Assembly (NCBI GenBank): GCA_023213395.1
Contig: CM041465.1
Coordinates: 174,475,741 to 174,539,740, forward strand
Direction: 5' to 3'
Length of the DNA: 64,000 bases
DNA from: Cycas panzhihuaensis
Lineage: Eukaryota > Plantae > Cycadophyta
Numbering within the stretch: the stretch's first letter is position 1; each line of letters opens with the position of its first letter. The notes under the pieces are model-generated. The model was not told the DNA's origin, made no database searches, and saw only the letters and a list, made by a program, of their open reading frames with translations. A program made the translations under genes and the position numbers. Positions 22,770 through 58,200 of this stretch are shown one piece after another.

Positions 22770-22940
22770 AGCCAAGGGCAATTTCATCAAGGACAAGGTC
22801 AAATTTATCAAGGTCAAGGTCAAGAACAATTCTATCAAGGTCAAGGTCAATTCCATCAAGGATAAGGTCAAGGACAAAGGCAATTCTATCAAGGCCAATT
22901 TAATCAAGGTCAAGGACAAGGTTTTGGACCTCAAGGAATA
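22770..22940 (+). repeat. Coding minisatellite in copia gag (QGQ/FYQ repeats)
   Basis: caaggtcaa-based units; the gag frame reads QGQFHQGQGQIYQGQGQEQFYQGQGQFHQG. Confidence 0.85.
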
Positions 22941-25332
22941 GGTAGAGGGCAAAGTCCAAGGGGAAAGAATCAAAGACAAAGAGGAAAGAGTCCTAAAGGT
23001 AGAGGAAGAGGAACAATACAATGTTCCTATTGTCATAGAAATGGACACTTAGAAAATAATTGTTTCACAAAAAGGTTTAACATGCAAAGAGGAACAACAA
23101 CTCCAATAGTTGAAGAACCAAGGGAGAATGAAAGACTTTTCCTATCTAGTTTAATGGCTAATGAAGAGGAAGATAGTTGGTATATTGATTCAGATTGCTC
23201 TACTCATATGACATACGGGAAAGAATGGTTCAAAAAGTTGGACAATACTCTAAAACACAAAATCATGTTTAGGGATAATACTACTCAAGCTGCAATAGGT
23301 AAAGGAAATGTAGCCATCCAAATAGATTTTGGAGAGACCAGGTGCATCAATGATGTACTTTATATCCCTGCACTCAAGAAAAACTTGTTATCAATTGGAT
23401 AAATGATGGGGCAAAAGTACAAAGTTATCTTTGATAATGGTGAGTGCATCATTAAGGACAAGTTGAAGAATAAGGCAATAGTTGCTAAGGGTCAAATGAC
23501 TAGTGATAGATTGCCTAAGTTAGTCATACCCCCAAATGACTACTATGCCTTAAAGACATTAATTAATGTGGATAGTGAGACTTGGCATAAAAGATTTGGC
23601 CATGTGAACTACAATAGCTTAACATTAATGAAAAAGATGAAAATGGTGGTTGGTCTACCTAACATTGAACATGGCAATGAAATATGTGAGGGTTGTATAC
23701 TAGGCAAACGACAAAGGGAAGGAATCCCTAATGACAGTTATAGGGCAACTGAGCCTCTTCAAATAGTATACATAGATCTATGTGAACCAATGGATGTACC
23801 TTCACTTGGGGGAGCCAAGTACTTAATAACTTTTATTGATGACTTTACAAGAATGACTTGGGCTTATTTACTCAAGTTCAAATTAGATGAACTTTGATAT
23901 TTTATTGATTTCAAAGTGATGATTGAAAGGCAAAGTGGGTATAAAAAATTAATCCTTAGATCAGATAATGGGGGAGAATTCATTTCAAATGAATTCAAGG
24001 ACTATTGTAGGTACTATGGGATAAGGAAACAACTTACTAATTCTTACACTCCTCAACAAAATGGAGTAGCAGAAAGGAAAAACAGAACCATTCTTGAGAT
24101 GGCTAGGAGCATGCTTAAGGATAAGCATCCTAGCAATGAACATTGGGTAGAAGTTATTTATACAACTGTTTATTTATTGAACAAATGCATAATAAAGGCA
24201 GTGAGATGGGTCACACCTGAGAAGGCTTGGACAAGTCACAAGCCAAGTATTAAACACTTAAGAGTGTTTAGGTGCATAGCATATGCACATGTTCCAGAAA
24301 AGAGAAGAACAAGATTGAATGATGAAAGCACTGAGTGTATATTTATAGGATATAGTGACACATCAAGATCCTATAAGTTATATAACCCTAAGGGTAAAAA
24401 AGTCATCATGAGCAGGGATGTCATCTTCAATAAAAATGAATTCAATCAAGAAGAAGTTATTGAAAAAGACGAAGGCAAAACCATTGTGATTGATGTAGAA
24501 CCTAATTCAAATGGTACAAACGTATTTAATACAAGTGAAGCAAGTCCTTTCATTTCAAATCAAAGGGTTCTAAAATGGGTGCAGAGTGGTCATAACCCTC
24601 AAAATATTTTAGATACTAACTTTGAGAAAAGGATAACAAGATCTAAAAGGGTAAATTTTGCACTTATGACTCCAATTATAGAGTCAAATGAGCCTCAAAA
24701 TTTTGCAGAGGCAAATAGCCAAGATAAATGGAAAGGAGCAATGAAGGAAGAATATAATGCCTTAATGAAGAATGCCACTTTTGAGTTCATTGATTTGCCA
24801 CCAAGGAAGAATGACATTGGGACAAAATGGATCTAAAAAACCAAGTACAAGTCAAATTGTTCCATTGATAAATACAAGGCAGGATTAGTTGCAAAGGGCT
24901 ATGATCAAGTTGAAGGCATAACTATAATGAAATAATTGCACTAGTTGCAAGGTTAGAAACAGTTAGATTAATCACAACCTTAGTTGCACAACAAGGTTGG
25001 ACAGCCCATTAGATGGATGAGAAGAATGCCTTCTTACATGGATATGTTGATGAGGAAATATATGTCCAACAAGCTAAGGGTTTTAAAGTGAAAGGAAAGG
25101 AAGTCAAGGTTTATAAACTCAAAAAAGCCTTGTATGAACTCAAACAAGCACCTAGAGCATGGTACTCTAAGATTGATAAATACTTTAAGGATAAAGGATT
25201 CTTAAGGAGCCAATCAGACCCTAACTTGTACATAAATTTGGAAGGAAGCTCAATGTTGATTGTTGGCTTATATGTGGATGACCTAATATATATTAGGAAC
25301 TATGATTACTTGTCCCAAAAGTTTAAGGAAGA

Positions 25333-28300
25333 TGTAACATTCCCAAAAACAAAGAGGTAAATTTTCTATAGAGGGAATTATTACTATGAAGTTGATTTTT
25401 AAGAGGATTAAAGAAAGAATCAATTAATATATTTTATTATAAAGTCAATTTTTTTAGAGAGAGAATTAGGAGCTGGTTTCAAGAGAGAGAGAAATAAAGG
25501 TTATAAATAGAAAAGCCTTGTTCATTTGTTGAACATTCTTGGAGAATTTATTATTACTTGGGATAATGGCCTTGTGTCATTAGGCCTTATTTGCCTATTT
25601 TGGAGGACTACTCTCACCTCGAAGAAGGTTACTTTATTGCTAGACATTATATCAAATTCTGCTATTGTTATTCTATTATCAATATATGTACTGTATACTG
25701 TTGTTATCAAAATATATACTATTAGATGAATGATTTATATGCCTAGTGAGTTGAATATTGTGGAGATTGTCTATTGTAAGTATCCATTACCTGCTACGAA
25801 TACTCTACCATCTGTTGTTGCATGTGAATTTGGATTACCACAACTGGTATCAGAACTACCAATCAGAGCTTGTGTGTAGCTCATGCTTGAAAGATTGCTT
25901 GGGGACTTTCTGTCCATCAATTGATGCCTAGTGAGTTGTCAAAGCCTGCATTGTGCCGGTATCCCTATGACCGTTCGTCTATTGTACCATTAAGGACACG
26001 TTGCCTTGCAATTGTCGTTTCCTTGAGCTGCCTTTCTACCAACCACTACTTTTCCATTGAAGTTATGTGGATTCGCTTTGACGTATTGCATGGAGCATGA
26101 TGGGATGAGAAGAATTGAGTGCATAGAATAGACAAGTTGTACTGAGGAGAATTGACAAGAACTTGCGAAGGAAAAATACATCAGCAACACAGTGCAAGAA
26201 ATTACCTCGGTCATGCAATACATTGAGGAGCACCAATAACCGCCTTTAAATCCATTCATAAATTGCAAGAGGAGGTGAGATCCATCCGTGATTCACAAAG
26301 GAGCACCAATAGCCGCCTCTTAATTCATCTATGATTCATAAGTAGATTCAAGAACCTTATAGAGGTGCCATAGGAGGCCGAGATGCCAATCACTTCTCGC
26401 GTAGTGATGGAAATGCAGGGCCAATATTTGTCAGTAGGAGGACATGATGCAGCGTAAGGACGGATCGAATACAAGGAGAAACAATCAGACGCAGATGCCC
26501 ATATGAAATTGCTCGAATGCCCATAGATTGTGGATCATTATTTTGAATTGCAAAACTAAATTATAGCCATCCGATTTGATGGAGAAGCATATAAATCCTT
26601 CACAAACATAGTAGAACAACCATAAACCCTTCACGATGATAAAAAACATAAGAAATTGCCATTTGACTTCTTGCACTATTGAATTATTTTCAACCATATA
26701 TTATTTCTTTGATTAATGTTTGCAAATGAAATTACATTTGAATTGGTTTGGAGTCCACCCCCTCACAGTTAAGTGATAGGTCACATTGACCTAGCAAGTG
26801 ACCAAGGGTTGAACCAAAAAGGGGCTTAAAACCCTTTTATTTTATTTTATTTTTTCAATTTTATTTTTCAAATAGGGTACCTAGATATTTTTGTTCATAA
26901 CCCAAGCTACAAGTACCGAATTGTAGTGTTGTCTGAACCATTGGAGTCCTAGTTCAAAGACGATCATTTCAAGTGGTTATACATGATAGTTTTGACCAGT
27001 AGATGATATAGATTTTAATCAATGAAGTTGCAGCTTTTGTTGACCAAAAACTTTTTGAGTATCCACATTTACATGAAAGAATTTAATTGAGCCATTCGAG
27101 ATGGCTAACAAAGTGTAGATCTTATTAGAACAATGGGACCTTGATGAAAGAATAGAGACGATAGAATGTACAATAATGTTGGACGTCTACTTCAATGTCC
27201 ATCTGATGCTTGAAGGGAAGAAGATTCCTTTTGCATCCCAATATCTAAGTGGTGATGGGGTAAAGTGGTTCAGATAATTTTGTAGAACCTACAAGGACTC
27301 AGAGTGCTTTAAGTGGTCATTTCTAAGAAGGGTGATAAGAGGATTTTAAAGGAAGTTGGTTCTAAACTAGTTTCAAGTCTTGCGATAAATAGAAATTTGC
27401 AAAGACAACTCGAGAACTAAAGAGGGCACATCTGGAGTTTAAATATCAGAGACTAAAAGGAAAAATGGAGAGATTTTTAAAATCTGGATCATGAGGATAA
27501 TATGAAGCATTGGTTAGAAACACCTGAGATCTATTGTGAATACATGTGGGACACAAAAACTGAAGTGTATGGACCATTATTAAAATGCTTCCTAGAAAAA
27601 AGAGCTCTTGATTGGTTCATAATTAAGCTGAAGAATCACCCATGCTCTCCAATTGGGGTTGGTTTCGATTTTCATGTATCTAAGCCATTCATAAGGACAT
27701 CAAGGCATTAAAGGTACTACATGAATTAGCAAAAATAGAAGAAGAAGAAGCAGAGAAAGAAGAACAAACTATTGAAGACAAGGCCTCAGAGACCTTACGA
27801 AAACAAGAACAAGAACCAGTTCAAAGGAAGCAACACAATTGCATAAAAGACTCGAAGCAAGCACATATGATGTTTGATCACTTACTGGAAGAGTCTCGCA
27901 ACAAGCAAATTGAGATCAAGGAAGAGATCCAAGGAGAAGCTACACAAGAGCAACACAAAACTATCAAAGAGAAAGCAAGAGAATGATCGGTGGAGGCAAA
28001 GGATTCTAAAGAAGAACCTCAACAAGCTTCATGCGAATCTTGCCAGGTACTCATTGATCCTATATTGCACATGCACATTTCTTTTGGTAGTTTTATCTGT
28101 CCTCTCTCATTTCCAAGTTCAATGGCAGTAGAGAAACCCTTCTTTCCCTATTCCATAGTTAGTCAAAATCCTAAACCCCTTAGCTCAAATCTTGTCGTAG
28201 GACAAATCCCAATTCCCTTTTACCACCCTAGTCTAATACTATCTTTACACAATTTTTTTCCCCATAAGATTTTCCCTCATTAGGCTATTTTAAACCATCC

Positions 28301-29664
28301 TTCCTCACTTCATTAGGTCTCATCACATGGTACGATGATTACTCCCTATAAAACCCCATCTGGTCCATCCCAATCCCCTTCTTTTTCTTAGTACCAATAT
28401 TGTTTTGTTCGCTTAAATCCTTCATTTTCTCTAAATACCATTCCTAAAACCCTATTATTATTATTTTTTTTCATAAAGAACATCTATCACTAATACCTTA
28501 TCCATCTTTTTCCCCTAAGAATTCTTGTGGTCAAACAAACACTTCATAAATTCTCATTCAAGTCAAAATCCAAACTTCATCATTTCTTTCTATACCTTTA
28601 AAGCTATGGTTAATCACCATTCAAAATTCCACTTCTTTTCATTTTTTGCTAAGTAATCATTAATTCAAGACCCTTATGATCGACTCCTTTACCAATCTCC
28701 CAAATTCCATCATAACCTTCTCCACAAAAATTCTACGTATTCTAATCACCTATCATTCCACAAGCCATTCCATCAGAGGACAAAATGTGCAAACACAAAG
28801 CAAGATCAGGATGAGGCATTTGAAGCACCTCACAGGTCTTAGGATCCCTTCAATACAGGACAGGTTACAACATGTACCTAGCTCCAGGAACGAACATTAG
28901 CAAGTTCATAAAACTCCTTAGCAAAATCCAACAAAAGTTGCAAGATTGGACCTAGTCTTCACGACATAAAGGACTTAGCAAGTGGTGGCTAGAAGAATTG
29001 ATCAGAGCTAGACAATGACATGCGACAAGCAATTCCCAATACTTCAAAGTTGAAGCATTATTTTAAGGGGAGGAGAATTGTAGCATTCCCAAAAATAAAG
29101 AAGAAGTTGGTTTTCTATAGAGGGGATTATTACTATGAAGTCAGTTTTTAAAAGGATTAAAGAGATAATCAATTAATATATTTTATTATGAAGTTAGTTT
29201 TTTTAGAGAGAGAATCAGGAGTTGGTTTTGAGAGAGAAAAATAAGGGCTATAAATAAAAAATCCTTGTTCATTTGTAAAACATTCTGGAAGAATTTATTA
29301 TTACCTGGGATAATAGCCTTGCACCATTAGGGCCTTGTGCCTAGTTTGGAGGACTGCTCTCTCCTTGAAGAGGGTTACTTTACTGTTGGACATTGTATCG
29401 GGTTTTGTTATTGTTATTATGTTATTATCGCTTCATTACTACTGTTATCAATATATGTATTGCTGGATGAATGATTTCTATCCATGTTGAGTTGAATATT
29501 ATGGAGATTGTCTGCTATAAGTATCCATTATCTACTATGAATACTCTACTATCTATTGTATGTGAATTGGGATTGCCACAACTTATGGAGCTTGTCTGTT
29601 GTAAGTATGCATTATCTACTGTGAATACTCTGATATATGTTGCATGTGAATTGGGACCGCCATA
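25333..29664 (+). mobile_element. Non-autonomous LTR element D (no pol)
   Basis: LTRs 25333-25842 and 29079-29664, perfect TSD gaaga, PBS tggtatcagaac 25845-25856, PPT aaggggaggagaa. Gag-like KCFLEKRALDWF in 27502-27711. Confidence 0.93.
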
Positions 29665-30809
29665 GAAGATATGTGCAAAGAGTTTGAAATAACATATTTG
29701 GGACTTATGCATTATTTCTTAGGCATTGAATTATGGTAGGATGGAAAGGGGATATTTATGTCATAGAGGAAATATACATTGGATATGCTGCACAAATTTA
29801 ACATGGCCAGTTGCAAGCCACTTGTAACACCAACTGAAGTTGGGTTTAAAATTGTCTAAGTTTAAGGAGTTTGAATCAATTGATCCTACACTCTATAGGT
29901 AGTTGATTAGGAGCCTTATTTACTTGACTTCAAGTCAACTAGATATTATGTATGCAATCAGTGTGGTTTCTAGGTTTATGCATGAGCGTAAGGTAAAACA
30001 TTAGCAAGCATCCAAAAGGATTCTCAAGTATCTCAGAGGAACCATTAGGTATGGTTTGCATTATAGGTCATAGGAGGGATTATAGGTTGATAGGTTATAC
30101 AGACTCAGACTAGGCAAGTTGTATAGATGACAAGAAGTCTACTTCATGTTATACATTTAGTTTGGGTCCATTAGCAATAGCATGGAGTTCAAAGAAATAA
30201 GCAATAATATCCCTCTCTATTGCAGAAGCTGAGTATAAGGAAGCGGTAGCAGGAGCTTGTAAAACAGTTTGGCTTAGGAGATTACTTCAAGATTTATAGG
30301 AAGAACAAATTGGTCTGACATAATTGTTTTGTTATAACCAAAGTACAATTCAGATGACTAGGAATCTAATGTTTCACGGCAGGACAAAGAACATAAAAAC
30401 ACATCACTTCATCAAAAAACTAGTGCAACAAGGTAAGCTGAAGTTGGTCTATTATAGCACAGAGAATCATGTAGTAGATATCTTCACAAAGGCACATGGA
30501 AAAATATAATTTATCAAATTCAAAGATAAGCTTGGAGTCTTGCCAAATAGGCATTATGGAGGAGAAATATTAGATAATGCGTACATTGGGGCTATACCCT
30601 GTAGCTTAGAGGCAGTTCTCTTTTCTGGTATTTGTCAAAGCTAGGTGGCAGTTGACCTTAAAAGGTGTGCCAAACTTTCTCCATCCCGCTTATTTATCCA
30701 TGGGGCCTGAAGACCCTGGGGTTCATCAATACCACCCTCTTTTCGACAATAATTTATTTCCTTCTTGCCTGTTGTGTGCATGCATTTGCTCTTGCCCTCT
30801 AATTCCATC

Positions 30810-38243: not shown

Positions 38244-40667
38244 TCCCCTTTTAATGTTTACAATGTTAAGCTTTACTCCAATGTATTGCACTAAACAAGG
38301 GGTTGCTCCAAATATACCTCCTCTGCAGGGTTGCCCTTAGGAAGGTGCTTTTCACGTCTATCTAATGGATTGGCCATTTGCATTGAGAAGCTCAGGCCAA
38401 TATTAGTTTGACGGTGTTCATATTTTCTCAAGTGCAAAGGTTTCTCTATAGTCAATGCCTTCTTTCTGTTTGAATCCTTTGGCCACCTATCGAGCTTTAT
38501 GGCGCTTGATAAAACCATCAAATCAGAATTTGGTTTTGTGTCTCCTTTTGCAGTTGATTGCTTGTTTTTTGTTAGGCAATTTTACCAAATCCCAAGTTCT
38601 ATTCTTTACAATAGAATGGATTTCTTCATCAACGGCAACTTTCTACTCTTTATTTTTACAATTAGCCTCCTCAAAATTGGAAGGCTCATCAACACAAAGT
38701 ACTTCAGTCGTAAGTGCATAATTGACTACTTGCTACCTCATTTTGGATGGATATTTTCCTTCAATGACTTGTGCATTGATAACTTCTTCGGTGTTGAAGC
38801 AATAACCTCAATATCCTGGGCTTAAAGTGGCATATCAACAGAAGGGCTACTAGAGTCAAGGGGTGTTGATGATGTGGATGGAGCAGATGTTGATAAAGAA
38901 GCAATAGGAGCAGAAGATGACCATGGTGTTGAAGATTGAGAGGGAAGGAAGTCCTCTACAATCTATTTACCTTTGTCAAAAGGTAGATGGATGGATGCTT
39001 GGTCCATTACCTCATTATCTTCAATAAAGATGACATCTCGTGATATATGCATTTTCCTTGCAATGGGATACACACTCTATATGCTTTGCTGCTAATAGAG
39101 TAACTAATGAAAATGTATTTTAGACTTTTCTTGTCTAATTTCTTCCTTTGTTGTTGGAGAGTATGCATGTATGCAATGCACTTAAAAGTACACAAATGGC
39201 TAACAGTTGGCTTTTTACTAGACCAAGCCTCCTCTAGTGTCATATTGATGACTATTATAGCAGAGCTCCTATTGGAGACATAAGCTGCTACATGAAATGC
39301 TTCTACCCAATAAGAAAGTGAAAGACCCTTTGCATGCATCATGGCTTTGGCTTTGTTCGCCAAAGTTCTATTCATTCTCTCAGCTACTCCATCTTGTTGT
39401 CGTATGAGTAGTGTGTTGTCTCTTGATCCCGCGATATTTGCAAAACTAGTTGAAGTCCCTTGAGGTAAATTTACCTCCACTGTCGGATCGCAGTATTTTG
39501 ATGGGTAAATTTGATTCATTCTCCAGAGCAAGTTTGAATTCTTGGAATTTGTCCAAAGCTTCATATTTGTGTTTGATGAAATTGACTCAAACTTTATGTG
39601 AGAGGTCATCAATGAAAGTGATATAATATAGTGCGCCTCAAAGAGATGGTGTGGACATGGGTCCACATAAATCAGTATGAACCAACTGCAATGGTCATGA
39701 TGCATGCCATGCTTTGCCTCTAGGAAAAGGTGCTCAATGTTGTTTCTCCATTACACAAGCTTCACAAAGGCATTTAGATGTTGAAATCTTTGGAAGCCCA
39801 AACACCATGCTTTTGTTTAACATCATTTCAATGTTTTCTAGGTTTAAATAACCTAGTTTGTTATATCAAAGCTATTCTTTAGCCGGTGACTAAAACACAT
39901 ATGATAGTGAAGTGTCAAGTATAATATTCAAAGCATCCAGTTTGTAAAATCCATAGTCTTTATGACCAATGGCAACCACTTGATCATTCTTGTCATTAAT
40001 GGTGCATTTCTCAACTTTAAACAAAACACTCAATTGTTGCCTATCCAGTTAGCTAATAGATAATAGGTTCTTGTGCATTGATGGCACCAAGGAAGCATCA
40101 CCTGTAGGAAGTGTTGAAGCAGTGTGATCTAGTGAGTGGAATGAGGCAATTTTGCTCACTCTAGATATTTGTACAATCTCATTATTTCCAAAAGTGACCC
40201 TTTACCTTCTTTAACATAATAGAGCAAATCCTTATTTCCATTCATATGAAGAGATGCTCCTGAATCAACAATCCATGTGCTGTTACTATTTGTGGTGTGA
40301 TAGGCACAAAACAATTTATCATCATCATTGACAAACTGATTTGTGTGGCATTGATTGCCACCTCTAAATCCCCCCCTTCTTCTATGACCTCCTTGAAATC
40401 AACCTCGATTTGATCTATGAGAGGTTGTTGTTGCCATTGTGATCATTGTTGTTGCTATTGAGGTTGGTTTTATTGTTGTTGTTATTGTATGTCAAATTGA
40501 CATTTCTAGCACTCTAGTTGAATGTGGCCCATTTTGCCACAATAATAACAAACAATGTTATTGGCTTTTGATGTGCCAATATTTAAATTCCCAAACTACT
40601 TGTTGAAGTTCTATTTAGGAGTTTCTTTGCCATTGTACTTGGTTGTGAACACTCATAATGTGGATGT

Positions 40668-41222
40668 TGTTAAACCTTATGTTTACATGTTAAGGTTATG
40701 TACTTTAATTTTTATGTAATATGTGTACTTTTGTACTTTAGGGGTGACTTATCACTTAAGTGATAAAGTGCACACCCACATTCTTTCTAGTGACACAACA
40801 TTGTCACTAAAGGGTCAAATGGACCCTCATGCATTTTTGCTCACATGAGAGCCCAAAAGGACACATGTCCTACATGCAAGGGATGTATCTTGGATGTTTG
40901 ACACTTGTCAAACATCCAAGGCCTTAGGTCTCTCATTTCACTCTATATAATGAGATCTCTCCTCATTGTCTCACAAGAGAGTTGGAGTTGTATTGTTATA
41001 CTGTTAGGTTGCTAATCAAACTGTCTATTCTTTTGGAGGTTGGACCAATTCCAACTTCACACATTGGGTATCATTTCTCTTGCTCCTTCATTTTATGCTT
41101 TGTCTCTTATGCTTTCTTTCATCTTGAGAGTATTATACTTGTTAAGTATTTGTGCTTCTAGAACTAGAGTGATCCTAGCTTCTAGATCTTGGGATTGTGA
41201 GGCCATTAGGCCTCTTTTCACA
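40668..41222 (+). repeat. 5' LTR of copia B
   Basis: TGTTAA...TTCACA, followed by PBS. Confidence 0.97.
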
Positions 41223-42832
41223 TTTGGTATCAGAGCAAGAGGAGACTAGTTCCCTTTGTTCTGTTTGTAGCTACTCAAGGAGATTCAAAGAAGGGCTTCA
41301 AACCCTTGGTGACGACCTTCACCCTTCGAAGGCGATCCAAGGTTTGTTTGAGACCATTATCTTGCAGGTTCAAGCTTCTGGAGCAGCATTGAAAGGCTGG
41401 ACCACTCCATATTCAGATCTGAATTTTTTTTTTCAGATCACCTTCAAGGGTTTTGAGCAAGTTTACTCACGGTTTTTGTAATTTTTCTACTAAAATCTAC
41501 ATTTTTTAGCTAATTTTTTTCTCACATTTGGGTGCTGAGCTATTCTCTAGCCATTTGAAGCTCTCAGACTGAATTTATTTGAAGTTTGAGGACCCTTGCA
41601 GGCTGTGGATCAATTTCTGGGCATTTTCAGCCTTGAAACCCCACTAAAAAAGCATAAAAATTATAGTTTTTCACTCTTTTTTCTCATATCAAGTTAGTTG
41701 TCCACATACTGACCCTGCATGCAGCTGTAGCAGACTTAAGGGAAGAGTTTTAGAGATTAATATGAGGGTTTAAAACCCCGAACAACCATACGGCTCCAGT
41801 TTTCCTTTCTCAAGGACGTATAACCAGCCATAACTTCAATTACTTGTAGCTCTTAGCACATTTGACGAAAAGCCTTGAGATTTTAGAGGGAGTTGGATAC
41901 CACTTGGGCACCCCTCCTCCTGAATTTTCAGCACAAACAGAGGTCTCTACATGCTGTTCTCATCATTTGCGTGTCCACGGGAGTCGGCCAAGTCACGCTG
42001 CCATGAACGAGCTTTTTTTTATTTTGAAAAATTCAAATCAAACTTTTGATTTTTGAACCTTATTTTATACTTTTAAGAATATTTCTCTAAATATTGTTGG
42101 CTGGATATTAAAATTTCTGGGTTTAAATCCTCAATCAAGGCTCCCTGCGTGGTGTTCTTGCTGCTCAAATTTGTAAAAAGAAAAAAAAATATATATATTT
42201 TTTTGAATTTCAACCTTTGTTTTTGGCTCTTTAAGCTTTTTTTAACACTTAATTAATGTTGCATAAGTGTTAATTGTCTTAGGTGAAGTGATTTTAAGCG
42301 TTTGCACATTGTAAAAGTGATATTTATCACTATTTCAAACACTTCTTTAAGGCACCTTGCATGGTGACTTATTGCCCTTAGTCTCAAAAAGGGCTCTAAA
42401 AAAACACTTTGTACTTAATAAAATCACTTCTTTTTTATCGTTGGGACTATTTTAAAGTCCCAACACTTGGTGCTTGGTATCCTATTTTGCAAGTGGTTCT
42501 CTTACCTTCACTTTTGAGCATTAAAAGGAACCCACTTGTATTTTCATCACAAAGTTTTGCCTTGCTTCATTGAGTACTTAAGCACATTTTCAAAGTACTT
42601 TTTTGCAAAACTCATTGTAATCAAGCATCTGTTTTTTACTTGGATCTACATAAGCACTATATTTCATTAAAGTGATCATTGTAATAACACTTCAAGTGTT
42701 TATATTGATTGACTAAAATTGCTTCATTTTGAAGCCACTCTTTCATTGTAAAGCTTAATCAAGCATTCTCATAAGTACATCATCCAAGTAAAATAAATCT
42801 AAGTTCACTTTAAAACTGCTAAAAAGCGACTT

Positions 42833-43222
42833 AAAATCTTGTTGGAGAGGCCCGAAAAAGGTTCAAACCTTGCCTCTGAAATAACCTTAAGCTTGGTGCA
42901 TTCCCTAGGGGACCAACCGACCGTACGATCAGTGTACGACAATTAAGGTTGCTTGAGGGAAAGGAGGTTCGAAAAGGGTGTTATTGGGGCTGTGAATCCC
43001 AGGGAAAGCATGGTACGTCCATGCAAATCAACCCTACCTGCCTTGTCCTAGATTTAACTTGGCCAACTGTTGGATCTCCTCTATAAGATCAGAGTTGGAC
43101 CAACTCCATAGTCTAGTCCTCCACCCCTCATCATTCCATTCAGTTGTTGGATCTTCTAGTAAGATCAGGACTGTTGGTTTCGTCAGAAGGTGGAACTTAA
43201 GTAACGAAAACTTTGAGTTTCC
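42833..43222 (+). promoter_or_regulatory. Candidate structured cis-acting RNA at the end of the copia B leader
   Basis: Non-coding block conserved with 48672-49060 (minus); multiple hairpins with compensatory changes; ends 36 nt before the gag ATG. Confidence 0.7.
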
Positions 43223-43258
43223 AAGTTATCTGCTAGCTTCAAGCTTTATAACTGAAAC

Positions 43259-46200
43259 ATGGCTGCTATCAACATGCTAAATGCATGCACCATTCGATTA
43301 ATAGGTCAAGATAACTATCAAGAATGGAAAAGAATCACTCAGAATTTGTTGATCATGAATGAATTTTGGGGTTATGTTTCTGGAAGACTACCCCAACCTG
43401 TACCTGTTATCAATGGCAATGTAACTATGCAACCTGATGATGCTTTAGTTGTCACTTGGGAAGCCAAAGATGAAATCGCTTTGGTATTTCTTCATATGAT
43501 TGTTGATGTACATGTGGATCAAAACATTGCTTGTGCTAAAACTTCTAAGGAAGCTTGGGACATTTTGTCCTCATTGTATGAAAGGCGAGATGAAGCTCGC
43601 ATTTTAATGGTTAAAGCCAAATTGTATTCTGTAAAGTTTGTCAAACCCATGTCAGCTTTTCTTTCCCCCATCAAGGAGGTATGTAATGAGTTGAATACAC
43701 TAGGTAGTCCAGCAACAAGAGATGAACTGATCACATCTATCACCAAAGCTTTGCCAAAGGACTACAATGGCTTCATATCATCCACTACAAGAGATGGTTC
43801 TCTCAAAAGAATGACATTCAATGAATTTGAAAGTCTACTACTTCAAGAAGAACAAATCTACACCAAGGATAATGAGGAGGAACCATCCACATCAAGTGCA
43901 TTCACGGCCAAATCAAAGGCCAAGCAGAACCCTAAACCTGCACTCTCAAAGCAGTTTGGGAACATGAACATTGGGTCTTCAAGGACCAATGTTGTATGTC
44001 ATTATTGTGGCAAACCTGGCCACATAGCACCTGATTGTCGAAAAAAGCAAGCAGATCTACTTCAACAGCAGCAGCAACCACGTCAACCAAATCAACGACA
44101 GTAGCAGCCACATCAGCAATACCAACAAAGATTTCGGCAACAACAGTAGCAACAGCAACCCCCTCGACCAAATCGAGGTGCCTATCGAGGACGTCAAAGA
44201 GGAAGGGGGGGTTTTAGAGGTGGCAATCAATGCCACTTTAATCAGTTTGCAGATGAAGACAAACTGTTTTGTGCATATCAAACATCTAAGGTTGATGAAA
44301 CTTAGATTATTGATTCTGGAGCTTCACAACACATGACTAGAAGTGAAGAGCTCCTCACCGACATCAAGGAAGGTAAAGGTCAATCAGTGACCTTTGGGAA
44401 CAATCAATCTGTTAAGATTTCTGGAATAGGCACAATAACTCCATTTCATTCTTCATGAAATCCTTCCTCTTCATTTCTCAATGGCAATGCCTACTTCATA
44501 CCTTCAATGGACAAGAACTTACTATCTGTTAGCAAGTTAGACAAGCAACAGATGAGTGTCTTGTTCAAAAATGGGAAATGTGTAATCAGTGACAAAGATG
44601 ACCAAGTAGTAGCTGTTGGATATGAGGATCAAGGCCTCTACAAGTTGGATGCAAATAATATAACACTTGATTCTACTTACTCTGGTTCAATTGTCACTCC
44701 ATACTTGTCCAAGATGCAACTTTGGCATCAACGTCTAGGCCATTTGAGCTTAGACAATTTGAGGCAGATGATCAACAAGAATATGGTACATGGGCTTCCA
44801 AAGATCTATGGCACAAAATGTCTTTGTAAAGCATGCATTGTGGGGACTCAGCATCGCTTGTCTTTCCCTAAAGGCAAAGCATGGCGTGCATCACATCCTT
44901 TGCAGTTGGTACACTTGGATTTGTGTGGACCTATATCCACCGCATCTTTTGGAGGAGCTTTGTATTACATCTCCTTCATTGATGACTTTTCTCACAAAGT
45001 CTGGGTCTACTTCATCAAGCACAAGTCTGAAGCTTTTTCCAAATTCAAAGAATTCAAGCTTGAAGTAGAAAACGAGTCTGGCCACTCCATCAAAACATTT
45101 AGGACAGACAATGGAGGAGAATTTACTTCAAAGGAATTCACCCAATATTGTAAGGATAATGGCATTCAGAGACAACTGACTATTCCTCACACTCCTCAAC
45201 AAAATGGAGTCTCCGAACAAATGAACAGAACTTTGGCTAATAAAGCCAAAGTAATGATGCATGCACAAGGACTCACTCGAGCTTCTTGGCGAGCTTTTCA
45301 CAATGGCCTATGTGGCCAATCGCAGTCCAACTACAACAATCACCAATATGACACCCGAGGAAGCATGGTCTGGCAAAAAGCCTCATCAACCATTTGAGGA
45401 CTTTTGGGTGCACTGCTTATATGCACATTCCCGATCAGCAAAGGACAAAACTAGACAAGCATAGTCTTAAATGCATCTTTGTAGGATATGCCATTCATAG
45501 CAAAGCCTACAAGCTGTATGATCCCATTGGGAAGAAAATGCATCTCTCAAGAGATGTCATCTTTGCTGAAGAAGATCATAAGGAGTTGCAAACAGCATCC
45601 ATGCAACCTCCCATTGACAAAGGCAAGAAGATTGTTGAGGCCTTCCTTCCCTCTCAATCTTCTACACCATGTACATCATCTGCACCTACTGGACCGTCTA
45701 CATCAACTGATTTTGCTCCACTTGATCCAAGCACATCTTCTATTGATCAACCACTTAAACTAGAAGATCTTGAGATTCAAGTTACTTCGATTCAAAAGTT
45801 ACCAAAATGGTACACACAAACAGTATAGGATGGCCACATCATTGAAGGAAAATGTCCATCAAAATACAGGCAGCAGACCAATTATGCACTTATGGCTGAA
45901 GTGCTATGTGTTGATGAGCCTTCCACTTTTGAGGAGGCTTCTAAAAATGAAAATTGGAAGGCTGCCATGGATGAAGAAATCTATTCTATTGAAAAGAATG
46001 GTACTTGGGATTTGGTTGAATTGCCTAAACACAAACAGGCAATCAGTTGCAAATGGGTCTACAAGACCAAATTCCCTGATGGTTCATTTAAGCTGCAGAA
46101 GGCCCGCCTTGTGGCAAAAGGATTTAAACAAAAAGAAGGCATAGACTATGAAGAAACTTTTGCACCAGTGGTAAATATGAACACCATCAAACTCATCTTG

Positions 46201-47432
46201 GCCTTAGCTGCTCAATACAAATGGCCAGTCTATCAGATGGACGTGAAGAGTGTCTTTCTTAATGGCGATCTTCAGGAGGAGGTATACTTGGAGCAACCTC
46301 CCGGTTACAAAGTACAAGGCAAGGAGCATTTTGTATGTCGCCTAAAAAAGGCGTTATATGGCTTGAAACAAGCTCCACGAGCATGGTACTCAAAGATCAG
46401 TGATTACTTCTTGAGACATGGGTTTCATCGATCTACTTCAGATCCTAACCTATATATAAAACATGAAAAGAACCATGTCAATTTTGTTGCCTTGTATGTA
46501 GATGACTTAGTGATCACTGGCAGTGACACTAAGATGATACACATTCTCCAAGATGACTTGAAGAGAAGTTTCGAGATGACAGATCTTGGACTTCTCCATT
46601 ACTTTTTAGGCTTTGAGATATGGCAACAGCCAGGCTATATCTTCATCTCCCAAGCAAAATACTCTTGAGACATTTTGCAGCGGTTCAAGATGCACGACTG
46701 CAAACCAGTGCCTACGCCAATGGAGAATGGATCTAAGCTTACTCTCAATGAGGAAGCTGCACCTGCATATCCCACACTTTACCGACAATTGATTGGGAGC
46801 CTCATTTATCTCACCAACACTCGACCGGACATTTCATTTGCAGTTGGGATTTGCTCACGATACATGTCTCAACCTAATCAGATACATTGGAATGCAGCTA
46901 AACGCATACTTAAATACATCAAAGGCACATTGCAGCATGGCCTTGAGTATGCGCATAATGAGAACTTCACTGTGGAAGGGTTCTCAGATTCTGATTAGGC
47001 AGGTTGCCAAGATAGCAGGAGATCAATCTCGAGATACTGTTTTTCCCTTGGTTCAGCAGTTGTTTCGTGGAGTTGCAAGAAGCAACCTAATGTTACCTTG
47101 TCCTCCACCGAAGCAGTACAAAGTCGCCATCGGTGACTTGTGAAGCTATCTGGCTATGACGGATTCTTGGGGAACTTGGACTTGAGCAAAATCACCCCAC
47201 CAGGATATATTGTGACAATCAAGGTGTGCTCAAGTTAGCCAAGAATCCAGTTTTTCATGCGCGGACAAAATACATCGATGTTCACCATCACTTCATCAGA
47301 GAACATGTGTAGAATGGTGAGATCAACCTCCAAGATGCACTTCTGGAGGAGCAGACAGCAGATATCTTTACCAAGCCTCTTGGTAGAGAAAAGTTTGTAA
47401 AATTCAGAGATGGTCTTGGTGTCCGACTTAAC
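43259..47432 (+). pseudogene. Copia B gag-pol polyprotein with several stops and frameshifts
   Basis: gag 43259-44104 (CHYCGKPGHIAPDC), protease IIDSGASQHM, integrase 44507-45828 (RTDNGGEF), RT 45892-46668 (LYVDDLVITG), RNase H (GFSDSD*AG..ADIFTKPL). Confidence 0.95.
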
Positions 47433-47453
47433 ATTATAAATAGTAAGGGGGGG

Positions 47454-48007
47454 TGTTAAACCTTATGTTTATATGTTAAAGTTATGTACTTTAATTTTTA
47501 TGTAATATGTGTACTTTTGTACTTTAGGGGTGACTTATCACTTAAGTGATAAAGTGCACTCCCACATTCTTTCTAGTGACACAACGTTGTCACTAAAGGG
47601 TCAAATGGACCCCCATGCATTTTTGCTCACATGAGAGCCCAAAAGGACACATGTCCTACATGCAAGGCATGTATCTTGGATGTTTGACACTTGTCAAACA
47701 TCCAAGGCCTTAGGTCTTTCATTTCACTCTATATGATGAGACCTCTCCTCATTGTCTCACAAGAGAGTTGGGAGTATTGTTATCTTTGTTAGTTTGCTAA
47801 TCAAACTGTTTATTCTTTTGGAGGTTGGACCAATTCCAACTCCGCACATTGGGTATCATTTCTCTTGCTCCTTCATTTTATGCTTTGTCTCTTATGCTTT
47901 CTTTCATCTTGAGAATATTATACTTGTTAAGTATTTGTGCTTCTAGAACTAGAGTGATCCTAGCTTCTAGATCTTGGGATTGTGAGGCCATTAGGCCTCT
48001 TTTCACA
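47454..48007 (+). repeat. 3' LTR of copia B
   Basis: Follows PPT; matches the 5' LTR. Confidence 0.97.
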
Positions 48008-48671
48008 GATGCCTCATCCTGGCGAGAGTAGATTTGCTCTAGTAAATCTCTTTCAAGTTGATTGAAAGTCATTGTGCCAAGTGTGACTCCTTGTGTGATT
48101 GAAGAAATGAAGTCGTTGTATTCCTTTGGTAGTGCATGAATTGTGGCAGTCACAAAGTCTTTATTTGGTGTCGGTTTTCCTAATATAGTCAACTCGTTGT
48201 TGATCTCTTTGATAGAGGACAACAAAGTCGTCATAGGCTTAAAGTAAACAACTTTGCCTTAGTCATTACAATGTGAGTATCATCTTGCCTTTCATACAAA
48301 GAAAACAAAATATCCCATGCATTTTTTTAAGAAACAACATTTACAATATTTTGATCAACAAAATTGTCAATAGTCATATGAATAAATGATAAAGCTATTT
48401 CATCATTAGCTTCCCATGCAACAACCAAAACAAGATTGGGATGGATAATCACATTACTATCTATTGGATTTTCAATTGGAATAGGTTTATTAACTCTATA
48501 TGATATGTAAGCCCAAAGTTCACTCGTAATAAGCAATAATTTTTTTATTTTTATTTTTTATTCCTGAAAGTTATATTATCTAGTTAACTTAATGTGGCTT
48601 GTATTAAGCATGTTTATTGTTGTCATTATATTAAATTTGTTTAAAATGCTCTTGTAACTAAAAAATGACAT

Positions 48672-49060
48672 GGAAACTCAAGGCTTTTGCTGCTTAAGTT
48701 CCACTCACAAATACACCGCCAACCCTAATCTTACAAGGAAGATCAAACAACTAAAGAGAGTAATTTGAGAAGCGAAGGGCTAGGCAATGAGTTGGTCCAA
48801 CCCTGATCATTTTAATAGATTCAACAATTGGCCAAGATCAAATTTAGAACAAGTGAGGTAGGATTGGTCTACACGGATGTATCGTGCTTTCCTTGGAGTT
48901 CACAGCTCCAATTACACCCTTTTCGAACCTCCTTTCCTTCAAAGATCTCAATTGCTATGCATTGATCGTATGGTCGGTTGGTCCCCTTTGGGAATGCACT
49001 AATCTTGAGATGTGAAAGGCAAGGTTTTAATCTTTTTCGGGCCTCTCCAACAAAGATTTT
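48672..49060 (-). promoter_or_regulatory. Homologous structured RNA candidate in the copia A leader
   Basis: Aligns with 42833-43222 and sits in the same position relative to the gag ATG (48626). Confidence 0.7.
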
Positions 49061-50481
49061 TAAGCAATATTTTAAGTGATTAATTGTAAAATAAATTGCT
49101 TATGGAAGATGACGATGTTGCCTTACAATTTGCTTTAAAAACTGATACAAAATGCTTCCAAATGAAGCTGCTTGAGTGTTTAAAATAACACTTCAAGTGT
49201 AATAAAGAGAGCACTAAAAACTTGAAAAAAGTATAAGTGCCAAAAGAGAACTTGCTGCTTACTTGCAGTGCTTAAAGTGGGTTCCTTTTTTAAGTGCAAA
49301 ATCAACCACTTAATGCACAATTTAATCACTTGCACCAAGTCACACGCTACCAAGAAGATGTTAGGACTTAAAATAGTCCTAATACGCGCCAAAAAAAGTG
49401 ATTTTTATCCCTTTTTTGATGACTAGGACTAAGAGGACACCTCACAGGAAGACTTAAACACACATATTCAATGTGAATTTATCACAAAAAAAGTACAAAA
49501 ATGAGTCAAATCACTAAATTTTGAGTCAAAAAACACACTTACAAATTTTTTAAGGTGTTAATTGAACTCAAAAAAATTAAAAAGTGAGTTTTTTCTTGAA
49601 AAAACGATGAAATAAGATTTAAAAACTTAAAAAAAGTAAACTTTAGGGAAAACAAGGTTTATAAAATCTAGAATATTCTAAATGACATCCTAAAATTATT
49701 TTTACAAAGTGAAGGAATAAAATTTTCTTCAAAAGTTCGATTAGGCAGCGACAGGTGCAAATCTGAATACGTAGGTGCTTCGATCTCCTCAATAGAAGCT
49801 CATATCGAGACAAGATTATAGAGGTGGCACGATTTGGGGCCAACAAAGACTCAACTCAAATTTCGCTGCATTTGGTGCATCACAAAGAGAGTACTCAACA
49901 GATGACAAATGACGGAGTTCGAACGGATAACTAGGACAAAAATCAGCCTTCTCAGTGAGATTAATGCTTCAAGACAGGTGCGGCTATGGCTCAGACACCT
50001 ACAGGGAGCTTCAGAGATGAGACAACAAAGAAAAATGAGTTAAAATAATAGTTTTCTTCCTTGGAAATTCGCCTAGCTTTATGAGAAATTTGACCACAGT
50101 GTGTGAAGCTATCGATGTGCAAACTCTAATAGAGATGAACAAGTTTTGAAGCCAACAAAGGGTTGATCACACTGAGAACTTGCAGATCTACTAAAAAAAA
50201 TCCTACAAAATAATTTTTATTTGTAGAAAAATGAAGAAAAATAGTGATTTTCATGTGTTTTCTCTGTTGCACATATAAAATAGACCTCAAAAAAATCCCC
50301 AAAATTAAATTTGTTAATTTCTAGCCTACAAACACTTTGAAATGCTGAAAAAACATAGAAAATAAAACCAAACTTAGCCATGGATTGCCTTCGGAGAGTG
50401 TAGGTTGTCACCAAGGGTTTGGTGCACTTCCTCAAGCCTGCAAACAACAAATACTCCTCTCCAATCTGCTTTGATACCAAA

Positions 50482-53701: not shown

Positions 53702-54895
53702 CAAAGTGGAAGTTTAATTAGAGGGTTGTGGTTATACATGCTTGGGTTCGAACCCATTACTATGCCACCATGAAGAACTCAAGCTTCATAGGTTAATAAT
53801 GACAATCACTGGAGTTGAAATTTTTTCCATTTCTACCATGTTTGATATTAACAAAGCAAGATTCTAACCTTCCTAATCTTGTACAATGGCTAGTTGATGA
53901 TTTGTAGGCCTACCTAACTAATCATATCATGTAGCCATTTAGGAGACTCTATATGCGATGTTTGATATATGACTACAATATATATCACAATTTGACTCCA
54001 AATTGGTGAAACATGGATAAAAAAGTGATAGTGACAACTTTATAGTTGGTCACATGCCTATTGAGGGTTAATTTTAGAGCTTTGAAGATCATATTAAGGC
54101 AAGGATAACATAGAAGACAAGTGAGGTTTTTTATCTTAATTCAAGCTGAGGTTCTTCTCATCTACTAGCAGTATGTTATCGCAATTTTGTTTTTGTAGAT
54201 GCAACAAGTAGAAGTAGATATAACTAATCCAATTTGGTTGCAAATGGTTCATGTTATAATGGATACAATGGGTTTCCAATCTAGTCGATGATATAGGCCA
54301 AAGTGGAAGTTTAATTAGAGGGTTGTGGTTATACATGCTTGGGTTCGAACCCATTACTATGCCACCATGAAGAACTCAAGCTTCATAGGTTAATAATGAC
54401 AATCACTGGAGTTGAAATTTTTTCCATTTCTACCATGTTTGATATTAACAAAGCAAGATGCTAACCTTCCTAATCTTGTACAATGGCTAGTTGATGATTT
54501 GTAGGCCTACCTAACTAATCATATCATGTAGCCATTTAGGAGACTCTATATGCGATGTTTGATATATGACTACAATATATATCACAATTTGACTCCAAAT
54601 TGGTGAAACATGGATAAAAAAGTGATAGTGACAACTTTATAGTTGGTCACATGCCTGTTGAGGGTTAATTTTAGAGCTTTGAAGATCATATTAAGGCAAG
54701 GATAACATAGAAGACAAGTGAGGTTTTTTATCTTAATTCAAGCTGAGGTTCTTCTCATCTACTAGCAGTATGTAATAGCAATTTTGTTTTTGTAGATGCA
54801 ACAAGTAGAAGTAGATATAACTAATCCAATTTGGTTGCAAATGGTTCATGTTATAATGGATACAATGGGTTTCCAATCTAGTCGATGATATAGGC
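53702..54895. repeat. 597-bp tandem duplication, about 99% identical
   Basis: 53702-54298 vs 54299-54895; about 4 substitutions seen. Confidence 0.97.
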
Positions 54896-55269
54896 CAAGA
54901 CTCAATTGTTCTTGTAATTGTATTCCTAGTGAATGAATGCCCTGGTAATGATAAATCAAGCTATGTGAAGCTTGTGGTTTAGCCCAAACTCTCACTTAGA
55001 TGGATAAGGGTGAGCTAGTTGAATCATCCATAGAAGTTGTCACAAGGTGGGACTAGAACAAGGGAGTTGTTGCCACACGGAACTTAGGTACATGATGTTG
55101 GCATTCTGATGAGGACATGACTAGGGTCAAGGACAAAGACAATAGCCTAAGAGACTAGTGTAATACAACATGAATAGAACCATTCATAGGAGTCGCCACT
55201 GGGTGGGACTTGAATAAAGAAGTTGCTGCTAGATGACGAGGTGAAGATTAGTGAACTCTATACATGTAG

Positions 55270-58200
55270 TGTTGGGTATGTCAAACATTTTGCATGTTTT
55301 ACATGGGTATAGGCATTATGCTTAAGCCCCAATTTACAGGGTCCATGTGTGGGGGACCAACATGACTAACATGGGTTTGTACCCATGGTATTGTAATATG
55401 CTTGGTGGTTTCTTATAAAACTATGCCTATATATACTTGTGTAGTGTAGAGGCAAATAGAGGATTAGGGTTTTGAGTGATGGGAATCTATAATTCTTTAG
55501 CTATTGTTCTAAATAATAAAATGACCTATCATCATACTTGAAACTCTGTGTTATTCTTGATGATGTGCTTGAGTTATTTTTCTTGCATTGTTACAAGTTT
55601 TTTTAATCACATTGCTTCTCTGTTTGATTTTCTCTTTTGAATTAGAACATTTTATAAGCTTGAAGCAAGCACTATTTGTGTTAGATATAGCAGTCCAACC
55701 ATTGCAAAGAGTCGCAATGAGGCATACGAGACTTGTTGATTAAGAAGACTATGCTATGGCATTAGAGATTGGGCCATATTGGAGAACAAGGCCTCTATGA
55801 TTTGTACTCCAAAGGTGTGGCAAAAGGTATCTCTAATATTGATTGCTCCTTTGATTTTGAATTTGGTTAATATTGAATTTGCGACAAACAAAATCGAGTG
55901 AAGTTTCCCATTAGCACAAAAAGAGCAAATGGGATTTTGCAATTGATACACAATGATGTGTTTAGACCTGTTGATGTATCTTCATTGGGTAGGTCCAATT
56001 ATTTTGTTACTTTTATAGATGCTTTCTTGAGAAATACATGGGTGTACTTTCTTAGGTAGAAATCTTAAGTTTTTAGCAAGTTCAAGGAGTTTAAGGCCTT
56101 GATGGAAAATTAGACTGATAAGGAGATCAAGGTGCTAAGAATTGATAATGGAGGCAAATTTTTCTCAAATGAGTTTGAATAGTTTTGTAAGTAATGTATA
56201 ATAACAAGGTAGAAGACAACTTCGTATACAACACAACAAAATGGAGTTGTAAAACATATGAACAAAACCTTATTGGAAAGATAAGGAGTATGCCTAGTGC
56301 TACTAGTTTAAAAAATAAATTCTAGGCTAAGGCTGTGATGACTATGAGCTACATGACAAATAGATCACCAACAACAACTCTGGTTAATAAGACCCCTCAA
56401 GAGGTTTGGATTGGTAAGAAACCATCTCTTGGTCATCTTAGAGTCTTTAGTTGTGAAACTTTTGTGCATGTTTCTAGCTTGTAGAGGACTAAGCTTGATT
56501 ACAAGGCACAACAGTGTATTTTCATTGGCTATGGTGATGGCATAAAAGGTTATAGGCTTTATAACTCAAAATCACAAAACGTTGCATATTGTTGTGATGT
56601 GGTCTTTAGAGAGGAATTCAAGTCTCTAAAGCTGAAAGAAGAACCAAAGAAGCATGATTCTAAAAAGGTGTGATTCGAGTCTGGAGATGAAGATTTTGCA
56701 CCAAATATGAATTGGCTAAAGAAAATGAACCAACTGAGGAGGTGGCTCAACCTCAAGAGACTTGTCTTGAGGAGATCAACTCTAGCGAGAAGACAACCTG
56801 ACAGGCATACTCTTGAGGACTTTTGTTTTTCTTTTATTATATCTGCTACATATGATGATTCAAGGACTATTTAAGAGGTACTTGAATCAAAAGGGAGCAA
56901 GTTCTAGAAGGCGGCCATGGATGATGCAATGTTGGCCTTGGACAAAAACAGAACATGGGATTTGGTCAAGTTGCGTAGTGGTAGAAAATCTATTGAGAAT
57001 AAATGGCTCTTCAAGAAGAAGTACAGGGCAGATAGTACCATGGGAAAGTACAAAGCCCGATTGGTAGCAAAAGGTTATTCCTAGGTGAAGAGAATAGACT
57101 TTAGTGAGGATTTTTCTCCTATTGTAAAGCTAACATCAATCAGATTTTTGTTGGCTATGCCAGTTGTTCGTGATCTTGAGGTGGAATAGATGGATGTGAA
57201 TATAACATTTCTTCATGGTGACCTCGAAGAAGAAGTTTATATGTTACAGTCATAAGGTATCAAAGTTACAAGAAGAAGTTGGTGTGTATATTAAAAAAGT
57301 CCATTTATGGTTTGAAGCAATTGCTAAGGATGTGCTATCAAAAGTATGATACACGTGTTAGGAGACAAGATTGAATGCAACAAAGTTGATTACTGCATTT
57401 GCTACAAATAGGTTGGTAATCATTTTCTTATCTTGGTTTTGTGTGGTGATGACATTCTACTAATTGCTTACAACAAAAGAATGATCAATGTTATCAAATC
57501 CCAATTGGCATCTCACTTTGAGATGAAAGATCTTGGTGAAATACAGTTTTGTCTGGGCATTGAAATTATGAGAAATAGACAGAATAGGAAAATATGGCTA
57601 AGCTAGAGGAGATATATCAAACTAATATTGTGGAGATTTAGGTTGTAGTATTGAAAACTTATCAATGTTCCTATTCCTATTGGATCAAAACTATTAGTCA
57701 AACAATGTCCAAAGACTCAACAAGATATTGAGGACATGTCTTTTATCCCTTATGCAAATATTGTGGCAAGTCTAATGTATGCTATGGTCTGTACTAGGCT
57801 AGACATTGCTGATGTAGTGGGAGTTGTGAGAAGGTATATATCAAATCTAGGTAGACAACACATGCTTGTTGTGAAGAGAATCTTTAGATACCTACGAGGC
57901 ATGCTAGACTATGCAATTTGGTACCAAGGAAGACCCAAGTGGAATAGAGCAGTGGATTTATAAGGTTTTGTTGATATAGGTTGGGTCAGAGATCTCGACA
58001 ACAAAAGATTCACAAGCAGTTATGTATTTAACTTGTTTGGTGGCACAGTTAGTTGGATGAGCAGACGACAATTAGTTGTTGCACTCTCAAGCATAGAAAT
58101 TGAATATATGGCAACAACTCATGCATGCAAAGAAGTTGTTTTATTATAGAGATTGTGCATATATGTTGGTTTTATGCATAAAGCTATGAGGATAGATTGT

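Follow-up and report, generated by a model that had tools for sequence, protein, structure and literature searches.

Two nested Ty1/copia elements occupy part of the window, by which we mean the whole 64,000-nt stretch of Cycas panzhihuaensis DNA that was analysed. Element B (40668-48007, plus strand) is inserted within gag of the older element A. Its LTRs (40668-41222 and 47454-48007) are identical at 535 of 553 aligned sites and flank gag with a CCHC knuckle, integrase, and reverse transcriptase (RT). Element A, interrupted by B, extends from 51007 to 37686 on the minus strand, with LTRs at 51007-50482 and 38243-37686 (470 of 515 aligned sites identical). The primer-binding site (PBS) of B lies at 41225 (plus), which we take to be of the tRNA-iMet type; that of A lies at 50479 (minus). 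Pfam matches were obtained to copia gag, the CCHC knuckle, integrase, and RVT_2, and assignment to Ty1/copia rests on the LTRs, the PBS, and a gag-integrase-RT order with copia-type domains. The open reading frames of both elements are disrupted, in B by stops and frameshifts.

Comparison of A with B revealed amino-acid identities of about 52% for Gag, 53% for integrase, and 70% for RT. At 4-fold sites, 49 of 99 positions are identical; neutral sites are near saturation. The nearest RT neighbours of the elements were found in Ginkgo (63-64% protein identity), followed by Taxus and pine (57-59%). Translation of gag is assigned to AUG 43259 (plus) in B, which has a strong context (A at -3, G at +4), and to AUG 48626 (minus) in A. 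Close Gag relatives are fragments only, and they start at the same Met as AUG 43259. After the Gag zinc knuckle, both elements encode a glutamine-rich and then RGG-rich low-complexity tail (44070-44160, plus; about 40420-40520, minus), possibly a condensate or RNA-chaperone region.

The window also contains a near-perfect 600 bp tandem duplication (53702-54898; 99.3%), which is either a recent event or an assembly artefact. Other repeats and decayed copia pol of different families were located at 19534-20951 with 28280-26840, 22383-30064, 55739-57924, and 2110-2970.

The pre-gag block and its leader

Both elements carry the AT-rich leaders of roughly 2 kb given in the preliminary description. 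About 2035 nt (B; 37.4% GC) and 1855 nt (A; 34.9% GC) separate the LTR end from the gag AUG, with 8 and 12 intervening AUGs, respectively. Measured from the transcription start inferred at a TATA-like site, the 5' UTR is 2.28 kb long in B and 2.10 kb in A, and the many upstream AUGs reported earlier number 10 and 19, the count in A being partly due to decay. Most of the leader is 30-47% U per 200 nt.

A non-coding block of about 380 nt closes each leader. In B it spans 42843-43223 (plus) and ends 35 nt before the gag AUG; in A it spans 48671-49049 (minus), with a 44-nt spacer to AUG 48626. The block of about 390 nt described initially, with its second copy on the minus strand, was therefore present within slightly revised limits. 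The spacer and gag start of B occupy 43224-43261, the 35-nt spacer being 66% AU. Block GC content (45.6% and 41.6% in the two copies) exceeds that of the whole leaders, as had been noted. Some 1.6 kb separate the PBS from the block, which is absent from the other repeats and decayed copia pol regions of the window.

Nucleotide identity between A and B is 0.77 in the block. The upstream leader reaches 0.53, where shuffled sequence gives 0.47-0.49; the values for 5' gag and pol are 0.66 and 0.70. Conservation above the rest of the leader, proposed as a test at the outset, was thus found, and this non-coding tract has been kept better than coding sequence. The conserved region is bounded by a predicted closing stem and does not reach into the spacer or gag. 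Two invariant motifs (42844-42860 and 42961-42981) each occur exactly twice in the window, against 0.05 and 0.01 occurrences expected by chance, with their second occurrences at 49048-49032 and 48934-48914 (minus). Neither of the two AUGs within the B block is conserved, so that the block holds no conserved AUG. The block was found in 20 of 24 listed sequencing runs (13 studies, 12 organisms), where it occurs in many copies; some of these runs are possibly the window's own source. Contig depth was greater over the block than upstream, depth not being equivalent to copy number. The block is certainly under sequence constraint.

As a distinct feature of the leader the block held up, but smaller conserved islands also occur elsewhere. 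One lies 3' of the PBS (41290-41342, plus; about 50430-50378, minus) and is 83% identical over 53 nt. In B, this island is predicted to form a hairpin with the 10-nt palindrome CCTTCGAAGG and holds a third YCGAA word; it is a candidate dimerisation or packaging site. A small hairpin of 8-9 bp outside the block (42440-42464, plus; 49382-49361, minus) has undergone a G-C to A-U double change and gave z scores of -5.5 and -4.5. Further islands were observed at 42523-42537 and 42684-42735 (plus).

CACTT/AAGTG words are enriched just upstream of the block, at 42230-42830 (plus) and 49060-49660 (minus), at densities of 25 and 18 per kb (window as a whole, 3.4 per kb). They form several small hairpins or palindromes, and similar palindromes are present in the LTR U3 (about 40750-40767 and 40897-40914).

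Predicted architecture of the block

The RNAalifold consensus was combined with folding of single domains to give a model of 99 pairs that fits both copies. The model comprises six domains (B coordinates, plus strand) and a 4-bp basal stem (42843-42846 with 43220-43223), which is invariant and hence predicted only. Domain I (42847-42876) consists of a helix, a CCGAAA bulge (42852-42857), a second helix, and a loop; the bulge also appears in the minimum-energy fold of the domain alone. Domain II (42883-42950) has an outer stem with one double change; inside it, two small hairpins meet at a three-way junction, where ACCAAC (42912-42917) is unpaired and invariant. The long stem of domain III (42957-43049) contains a UCGAAA bulge (42969-42974) and carries two hairpins, one at 42985-43001 with an invariant CUGUGAA loop and one double change, and the other at 43008-43024. 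Domain IV (43059-43103) is a stem with a GUUG/AG internal loop and a GAUCU hairpin. In domain V (43120-43194), an outer helix (43120-43125/43189-43194; one double change) encloses a similar hairpin at 43141-43173. Domain VI is a hairpin (43195-43218) that can be extended to 43192-43222 in an alternative fold, which excludes the domain V outer helix and the basal stem. Both of these folds are plausible as models, and the one with the domain V outer helix is backed by variation. Two elements were dropped during modelling: a helix at 43048-43054/43110-43116, broken by majority letters, and the fourth pair of the 42961 helix. Between the block and the rest of the B transcript, 13 long-range helices of 11-13 bp are predicted.

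All six stems quoted in the preliminary description were located in both copies, and two of its other observations needed rereading. The purine-rich linkers are indeed invariant, but most of their length is predicted to form helix around a 6-nt bulge. Likewise, the pyrimidine tract exists, but its 5' part (43120-43125) is predicted to pair with 43189-43194, which competes with the lower half of the last hairpin quoted there.

Two duplicated modules had been overlooked. Module alpha is a helix, a 6-nt YCGAAA bulge, and a helix, found in domain I (bulge at 42852) and domain III (42969). A descriptor derived from the block itself picked out 3 of the 4 sites there, the fourth failing at a change private to A. 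None of the 18 YCGAAA sites elsewhere in the window matched (0.6-0.8% per site expected by chance). Among unrelated copia loci, 1 of 140 YCGAAA sites matched. Module beta is the GUUG/AG internal loop beneath a GAUCU hairpin, present in domains IV (43069) and V (43146). The unpaired ACCAAC of domain II is complementary to 43173-43178 and to GUUGG in either beta loop, giving three unpaired GUUGG sites. This pairing is a candidate pseudoknot or dimer contact whose letters show no variation. The YCGAA-type bulges resemble T-loop pentaloops. A double T-loop, as found in the T-box, RNase P, and the L1 stalk, is defined by two pentanucleotide T-loops interdigitated head to tail (PMC4810234), and the likeness of the block to it is a sequence resemblance of two invariant bulges.

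A and B agree at 73 of the 99 modelled pairs, including one that is mismatched in each of them. Among the others, 17 differ on one side and 5 on both, and 4 are broken. G-U is gained or lost in all 17 one-sided changes. Identity is 84% in stem columns and 69-70% in loops and junctions, a difference that is partly built in. Consensus energy was -81.6, versus -58.0 +/- 4.9 for 40 column shuffles with the structure re-predicted (z -4.8), and the SCI was 0.74 versus 0.59. The same null also favours the reverse complement (z -4.3), the LTR (-5.7), and coding controls (to -3.4). Folding of single copies gave z scores of -2.1 and -1.0. When the structure was predicted from a single copy, pairing was preserved at 13 of 26 and 16 of 28 changed pairs, against a rate of 32% for coding controls (p 0.05 and 0.007); at a stricter cut-off, the values were 5 of 14 (p 0.40) for the B-derived structure and 12 of 19 (p 0.006) for the other copy.

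The compensatory changes proposed initially exist as double changes, but not in excess over shuffles: 6 were counted against a mean of 4.8 and a maximum of 9 in 40 shuffles, from two full copies and unphased variant tables. With the structure fixed, 14 of 500 shuffles reached 5 double changes (basal stem entered one column off). The U-A to C-G change quoted at 43011/43021 is present. This pair is polymorphic, and both its positions belong to CpG dinucleotides, for which one would expect parallel decay; pair-breaking variants in its hairpin (43008-43024) reach 30-67%.

Contig variants were used to weigh the individual pairs. Contigs of four DNA runs aligned to copy A provided 39 variant rows at >= 15%; on the copy B side, 40 of 265 rows were covered. 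At three of the 4 broken pairs in A, 84-99% of contig depth has the pairing letter (15-49% at the fourth), and these three breaks are private decay of the older copy. Majority differences from A in retained stems (>= 50% in at least 3 runs) keep or restore pairing in 9 of 9 cases, all nine reverting to the letter of B, on which the model was built. An independent case is the mismatch common to both copies, which pairs in 89-99% of the depth aligned to B (within the 40 of 265 rows). No variant row was present on A's side at the double changes 42988/42998 and 43125/43189, indicating that A's letters there are family-level. At 42888/42945, one side has 7-16% other letters and the other side low depth, and the fifth double-change pair is B-specific. 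With conservation above that of coding sequence, edges at the closing stem, and most breaks explained as private decay, the earlier view of a conserved, structured cis-acting RNA was upheld, and on this model the block very probably has a conserved fold.

Relatives of the block

Searches with Rfam covariance models, which include the described IRES classes, gave a best E of 0.3, far under gathering scores, in line with the preliminary remark that the block was not recognised as a described family. ARAGORN detected 0 tRNA genes in the window, and the block does not appear as a tRNA-derived insert. A sequence-only profile finds just the two copies in the window. Pattern scans for the block returned 0 viral and 0 genome contigs. 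A metagenome pattern scan returned 9 loci, all of which were rejected as one unrelated tandem repeat of about 40 nt containing GAGGTYYGAAAA, with no similarity to B.

RT-based scans recovered 0 and 1 distant locus from viral contigs and 79 copia contigs from prokaryote assemblies (RT 38-58% identical). Eukaryotic copia RT contigs thus occur in many prokaryote assemblies (L010-L089), most likely as contamination. The block was found in none of the 80 RT-found loci (best nhmmer E 1.5), few of which extend upstream of gag. The closest distant relative among these loci (L011; RT 58%) has about 50 nt from PBS to gag and lacks the block, as a single case.

The literature searched holds no account of this element; supplements and TE libraries, outside the search, could hold the family. 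Copia lineage definitions, in the part consulted, leave leaders untreated (PMC6317226), and what was seen of a 2025 review of the plant LTR retrotransposon life cycle does not mention IRES, UTR, or secondary structure (PMC12786077). Sirevirus likewise has non-coding motifs that are conserved between divergent plant copia elements. In the portion consulted, these comprise repeat boxes in the LTRs, multiple PPTs, and short inverted repeats, unlike a 380-nt multi-domain RNA before gag (PMC2829016). We regard the block as a real leader domain, very probably structured, that is restricted to a single copia lineage of gymnosperm type; its modular layout is unusual, and the literature searched does not describe it.

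Candidate functions

Our tentative first choice, which is a real possibility and somewhat short of probable, is that the block acts as an IRES-like start element bypassing the 10-19 upstream AUGs. The layout is of the IRES type: a predicted structured domain lies right before the start codon, behind a leader hostile to scanning. We chose this reading because the AU-rich distance to a strong-context AUG is fixed at 35-44 nt, because scanning ribosomes would cross the leader poorly, and because the separate PBS-side island is free for dimerisation or packaging and the short-leader relative L011 has no block. The block would recruit the host translation machinery internally, so that Gag-Pol would be initiated 35-44 nt further on, at the AUG, even though the leader exceeds 2 kb. 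The YCGAAA bulges, CUGUGAA loop, ACCAAC junction, and GUUG loops might make tertiary contacts or bind a conserved host partner, perhaps the 40S subunit, an initiation factor, or initiator tRNA. Unpaired nucleotides kept tighter than Gag would fit such a slowly evolving partner. The AU-rich spacer could serve as the landing site, and packaging signals would sit apart, in the island beside the PBS.

Known 5' IRESs of retroelements offer the closest comparison. Gypsy, VL30, and LINE-1 are reported to show such activity; about other retroelements little is known, according to the part of the source consulted (PMC10974842). Like the leaders of gypsy (Drosophila), VL30 (mouse), LINE-1, and retroviruses, the block is a structured non-coding region right before gag. 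It differs in lying in a plant Ty1/copia element, at the end of a 2-kb leader and far from the PBS, and in its duplicated YCGAAA-bulge and GUUG-loop modules without an Rfam match. For a plant copia element, software has predicted an IRES between two ORFs (PMC11044480, excerpt). Against the IRES-like reading, BARE1/BARE is described, in the passages available, as having separate capped and uncapped RNA pools, the capped RNA solving translation (PMC3735527).

The leaders of Caulimoviridae, which support ribosome shunting, are likewise plant reverse-transcribing, structured, and followed by an AU-rich stretch after the basal stem. The pararetroviral shunt uses a short uORF ending few nt before the basal stem (PMC5902531, relevant part). 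A shunt of this type was rejected since no short uORF ends close to the basal stem (the nearest lies 462 nt away in B and 403 nt in A), and the part of the leader that bears uORFs lies outside the stem.

The retroviral packaging signal (Psi) and IRES overlap just before gag. Position therefore does not separate IRES from packaging. Elements that bind proteins for packaging or export have duplicated modules at least as typically as IRESs do. A packaging or dimerisation domain is the main rival, since such modules would also suit multimeric Gag. This alternative strikes us as less likely. It proposes that nucleocapsid would bind the repeated modules and unpaired guanines, and that a palindromic hairpin at 42919-42930 or the ACCAAC/GUUGG pairing would join genomes. 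It is consistent with a Gag that carries a CCHC knuckle, with two pairs of modules, and with an invariant ACCAAC able to pair with three unpaired GUUGG sites. Ty1, of the same superfamily and with Gag as its RNA-binding protein, needs a 5' region of about 380 nt with palindromes and a Gag-binding pseudoknot (PMC6844567, sections seen). Like that region (pseudoknot, PAL1-3, extended tRNA boxes) and retroviral Psi, the block is about 380 nt long and multi-stem, with a candidate palindrome. However, the Ty1 packaging and dimer signals lie beside the PBS (same sections of PMC6844567), in a region at the RNA 5' end that includes the PBS and overlaps gag; the block is wholly non-coding and 1.6 kb past the PBS, where another island is conserved. 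Packaging also fits poorly with a block kept better than Gag itself, with the absence of the block from L011, and with a palindromic hairpin that has only a 4-nt loop and contains CpG sites. Position, leader length, and conservation lean towards translation over packaging, and the two roles are not mutually exclusive.

Export was considered as a further role, in which the block would be a CTE-like scaffold through which a host RNA-binding protein exports or stabilises unspliced, intron-like U-rich genomic RNA. The MPMV CTE has two loops, which the repeated internal loops of the block recall. The twofold repetition, the U content of the leader (mostly 30-47% per 200 nt), and conservation pointing to a host partner would suit this reading, which leaves the fixed distance to the AUG unexplained and appears unlikely to us.

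A fold that is merely incidental to a DNA element (an internal promoter or enhancer), or to a tract recombined between families, would agree with covariation that is not significant, A/B differences without significant clustering (permutation p 0.10 and 0.08), and an LTR promoter region that scores well under the same folding null. Against it stand the higher identity of stems than of loops and junctions (84% vs 69-70%, partly built in) and edges of conservation that match the predicted closing stem, short of the spacer and gag. In addition, both letter types are common in contigs at two double-change pairs, the TATA-like loop of B is not kept in A, and the bulge module matches 3 of 4 block sites versus 0 of 18 other window sites. 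We regard this explanation, too, as distinctly unlikely.

The weakest alternative, which we consider very improbable, makes the leader an intron that the block regulates or lies within, with spliced RNA translated and unspliced RNA keeping the block: a pyrimidine tract followed by YAG in both copies (43143 in B, matching place in A) and a donor-like AG/GT at the end of the PBS island in B (41340) would allow it, but the tract and YAG are predicted to be paired in a helix with a double change, A has GC instead of GT at the donor-like site, and known plant copia introns, in the excerpts seen, centre on the protease region (PMC5580714, PMC3735527). Among the matches listed from a run guessed to be RNA (X15), there was no GT-AG joint and no loose end at the acceptor site; contigs cannot show starts or levels, and this result carries no weight for or against splicing.

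The IRES-like reading can be extended speculatively. The block might represent a new IRES class and would then be the first IRES with a defined structure known from plant LTR retrotransposons. Its two YCGAAA bulges would fold as T-loops and dock into a tRNA-elbow platform capturing initiator tRNA-Met. The alternative fold of domains V and VI by the AUG would then switch the genome between Gag translation and priming by the same tRNA. We consider this model a long shot.

The block is a compact, bounded candidate for how long-leader plant LTR retrotransposons start translation or choose RNA for packaging. Should it serve in packaging, no earlier domain of that kind has been defined in a plant copia element as far as the literature searched shows. 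Should it be an IRES, it would bring a new fold and a tool of plant origin for cap-independent, polycistronic expression.
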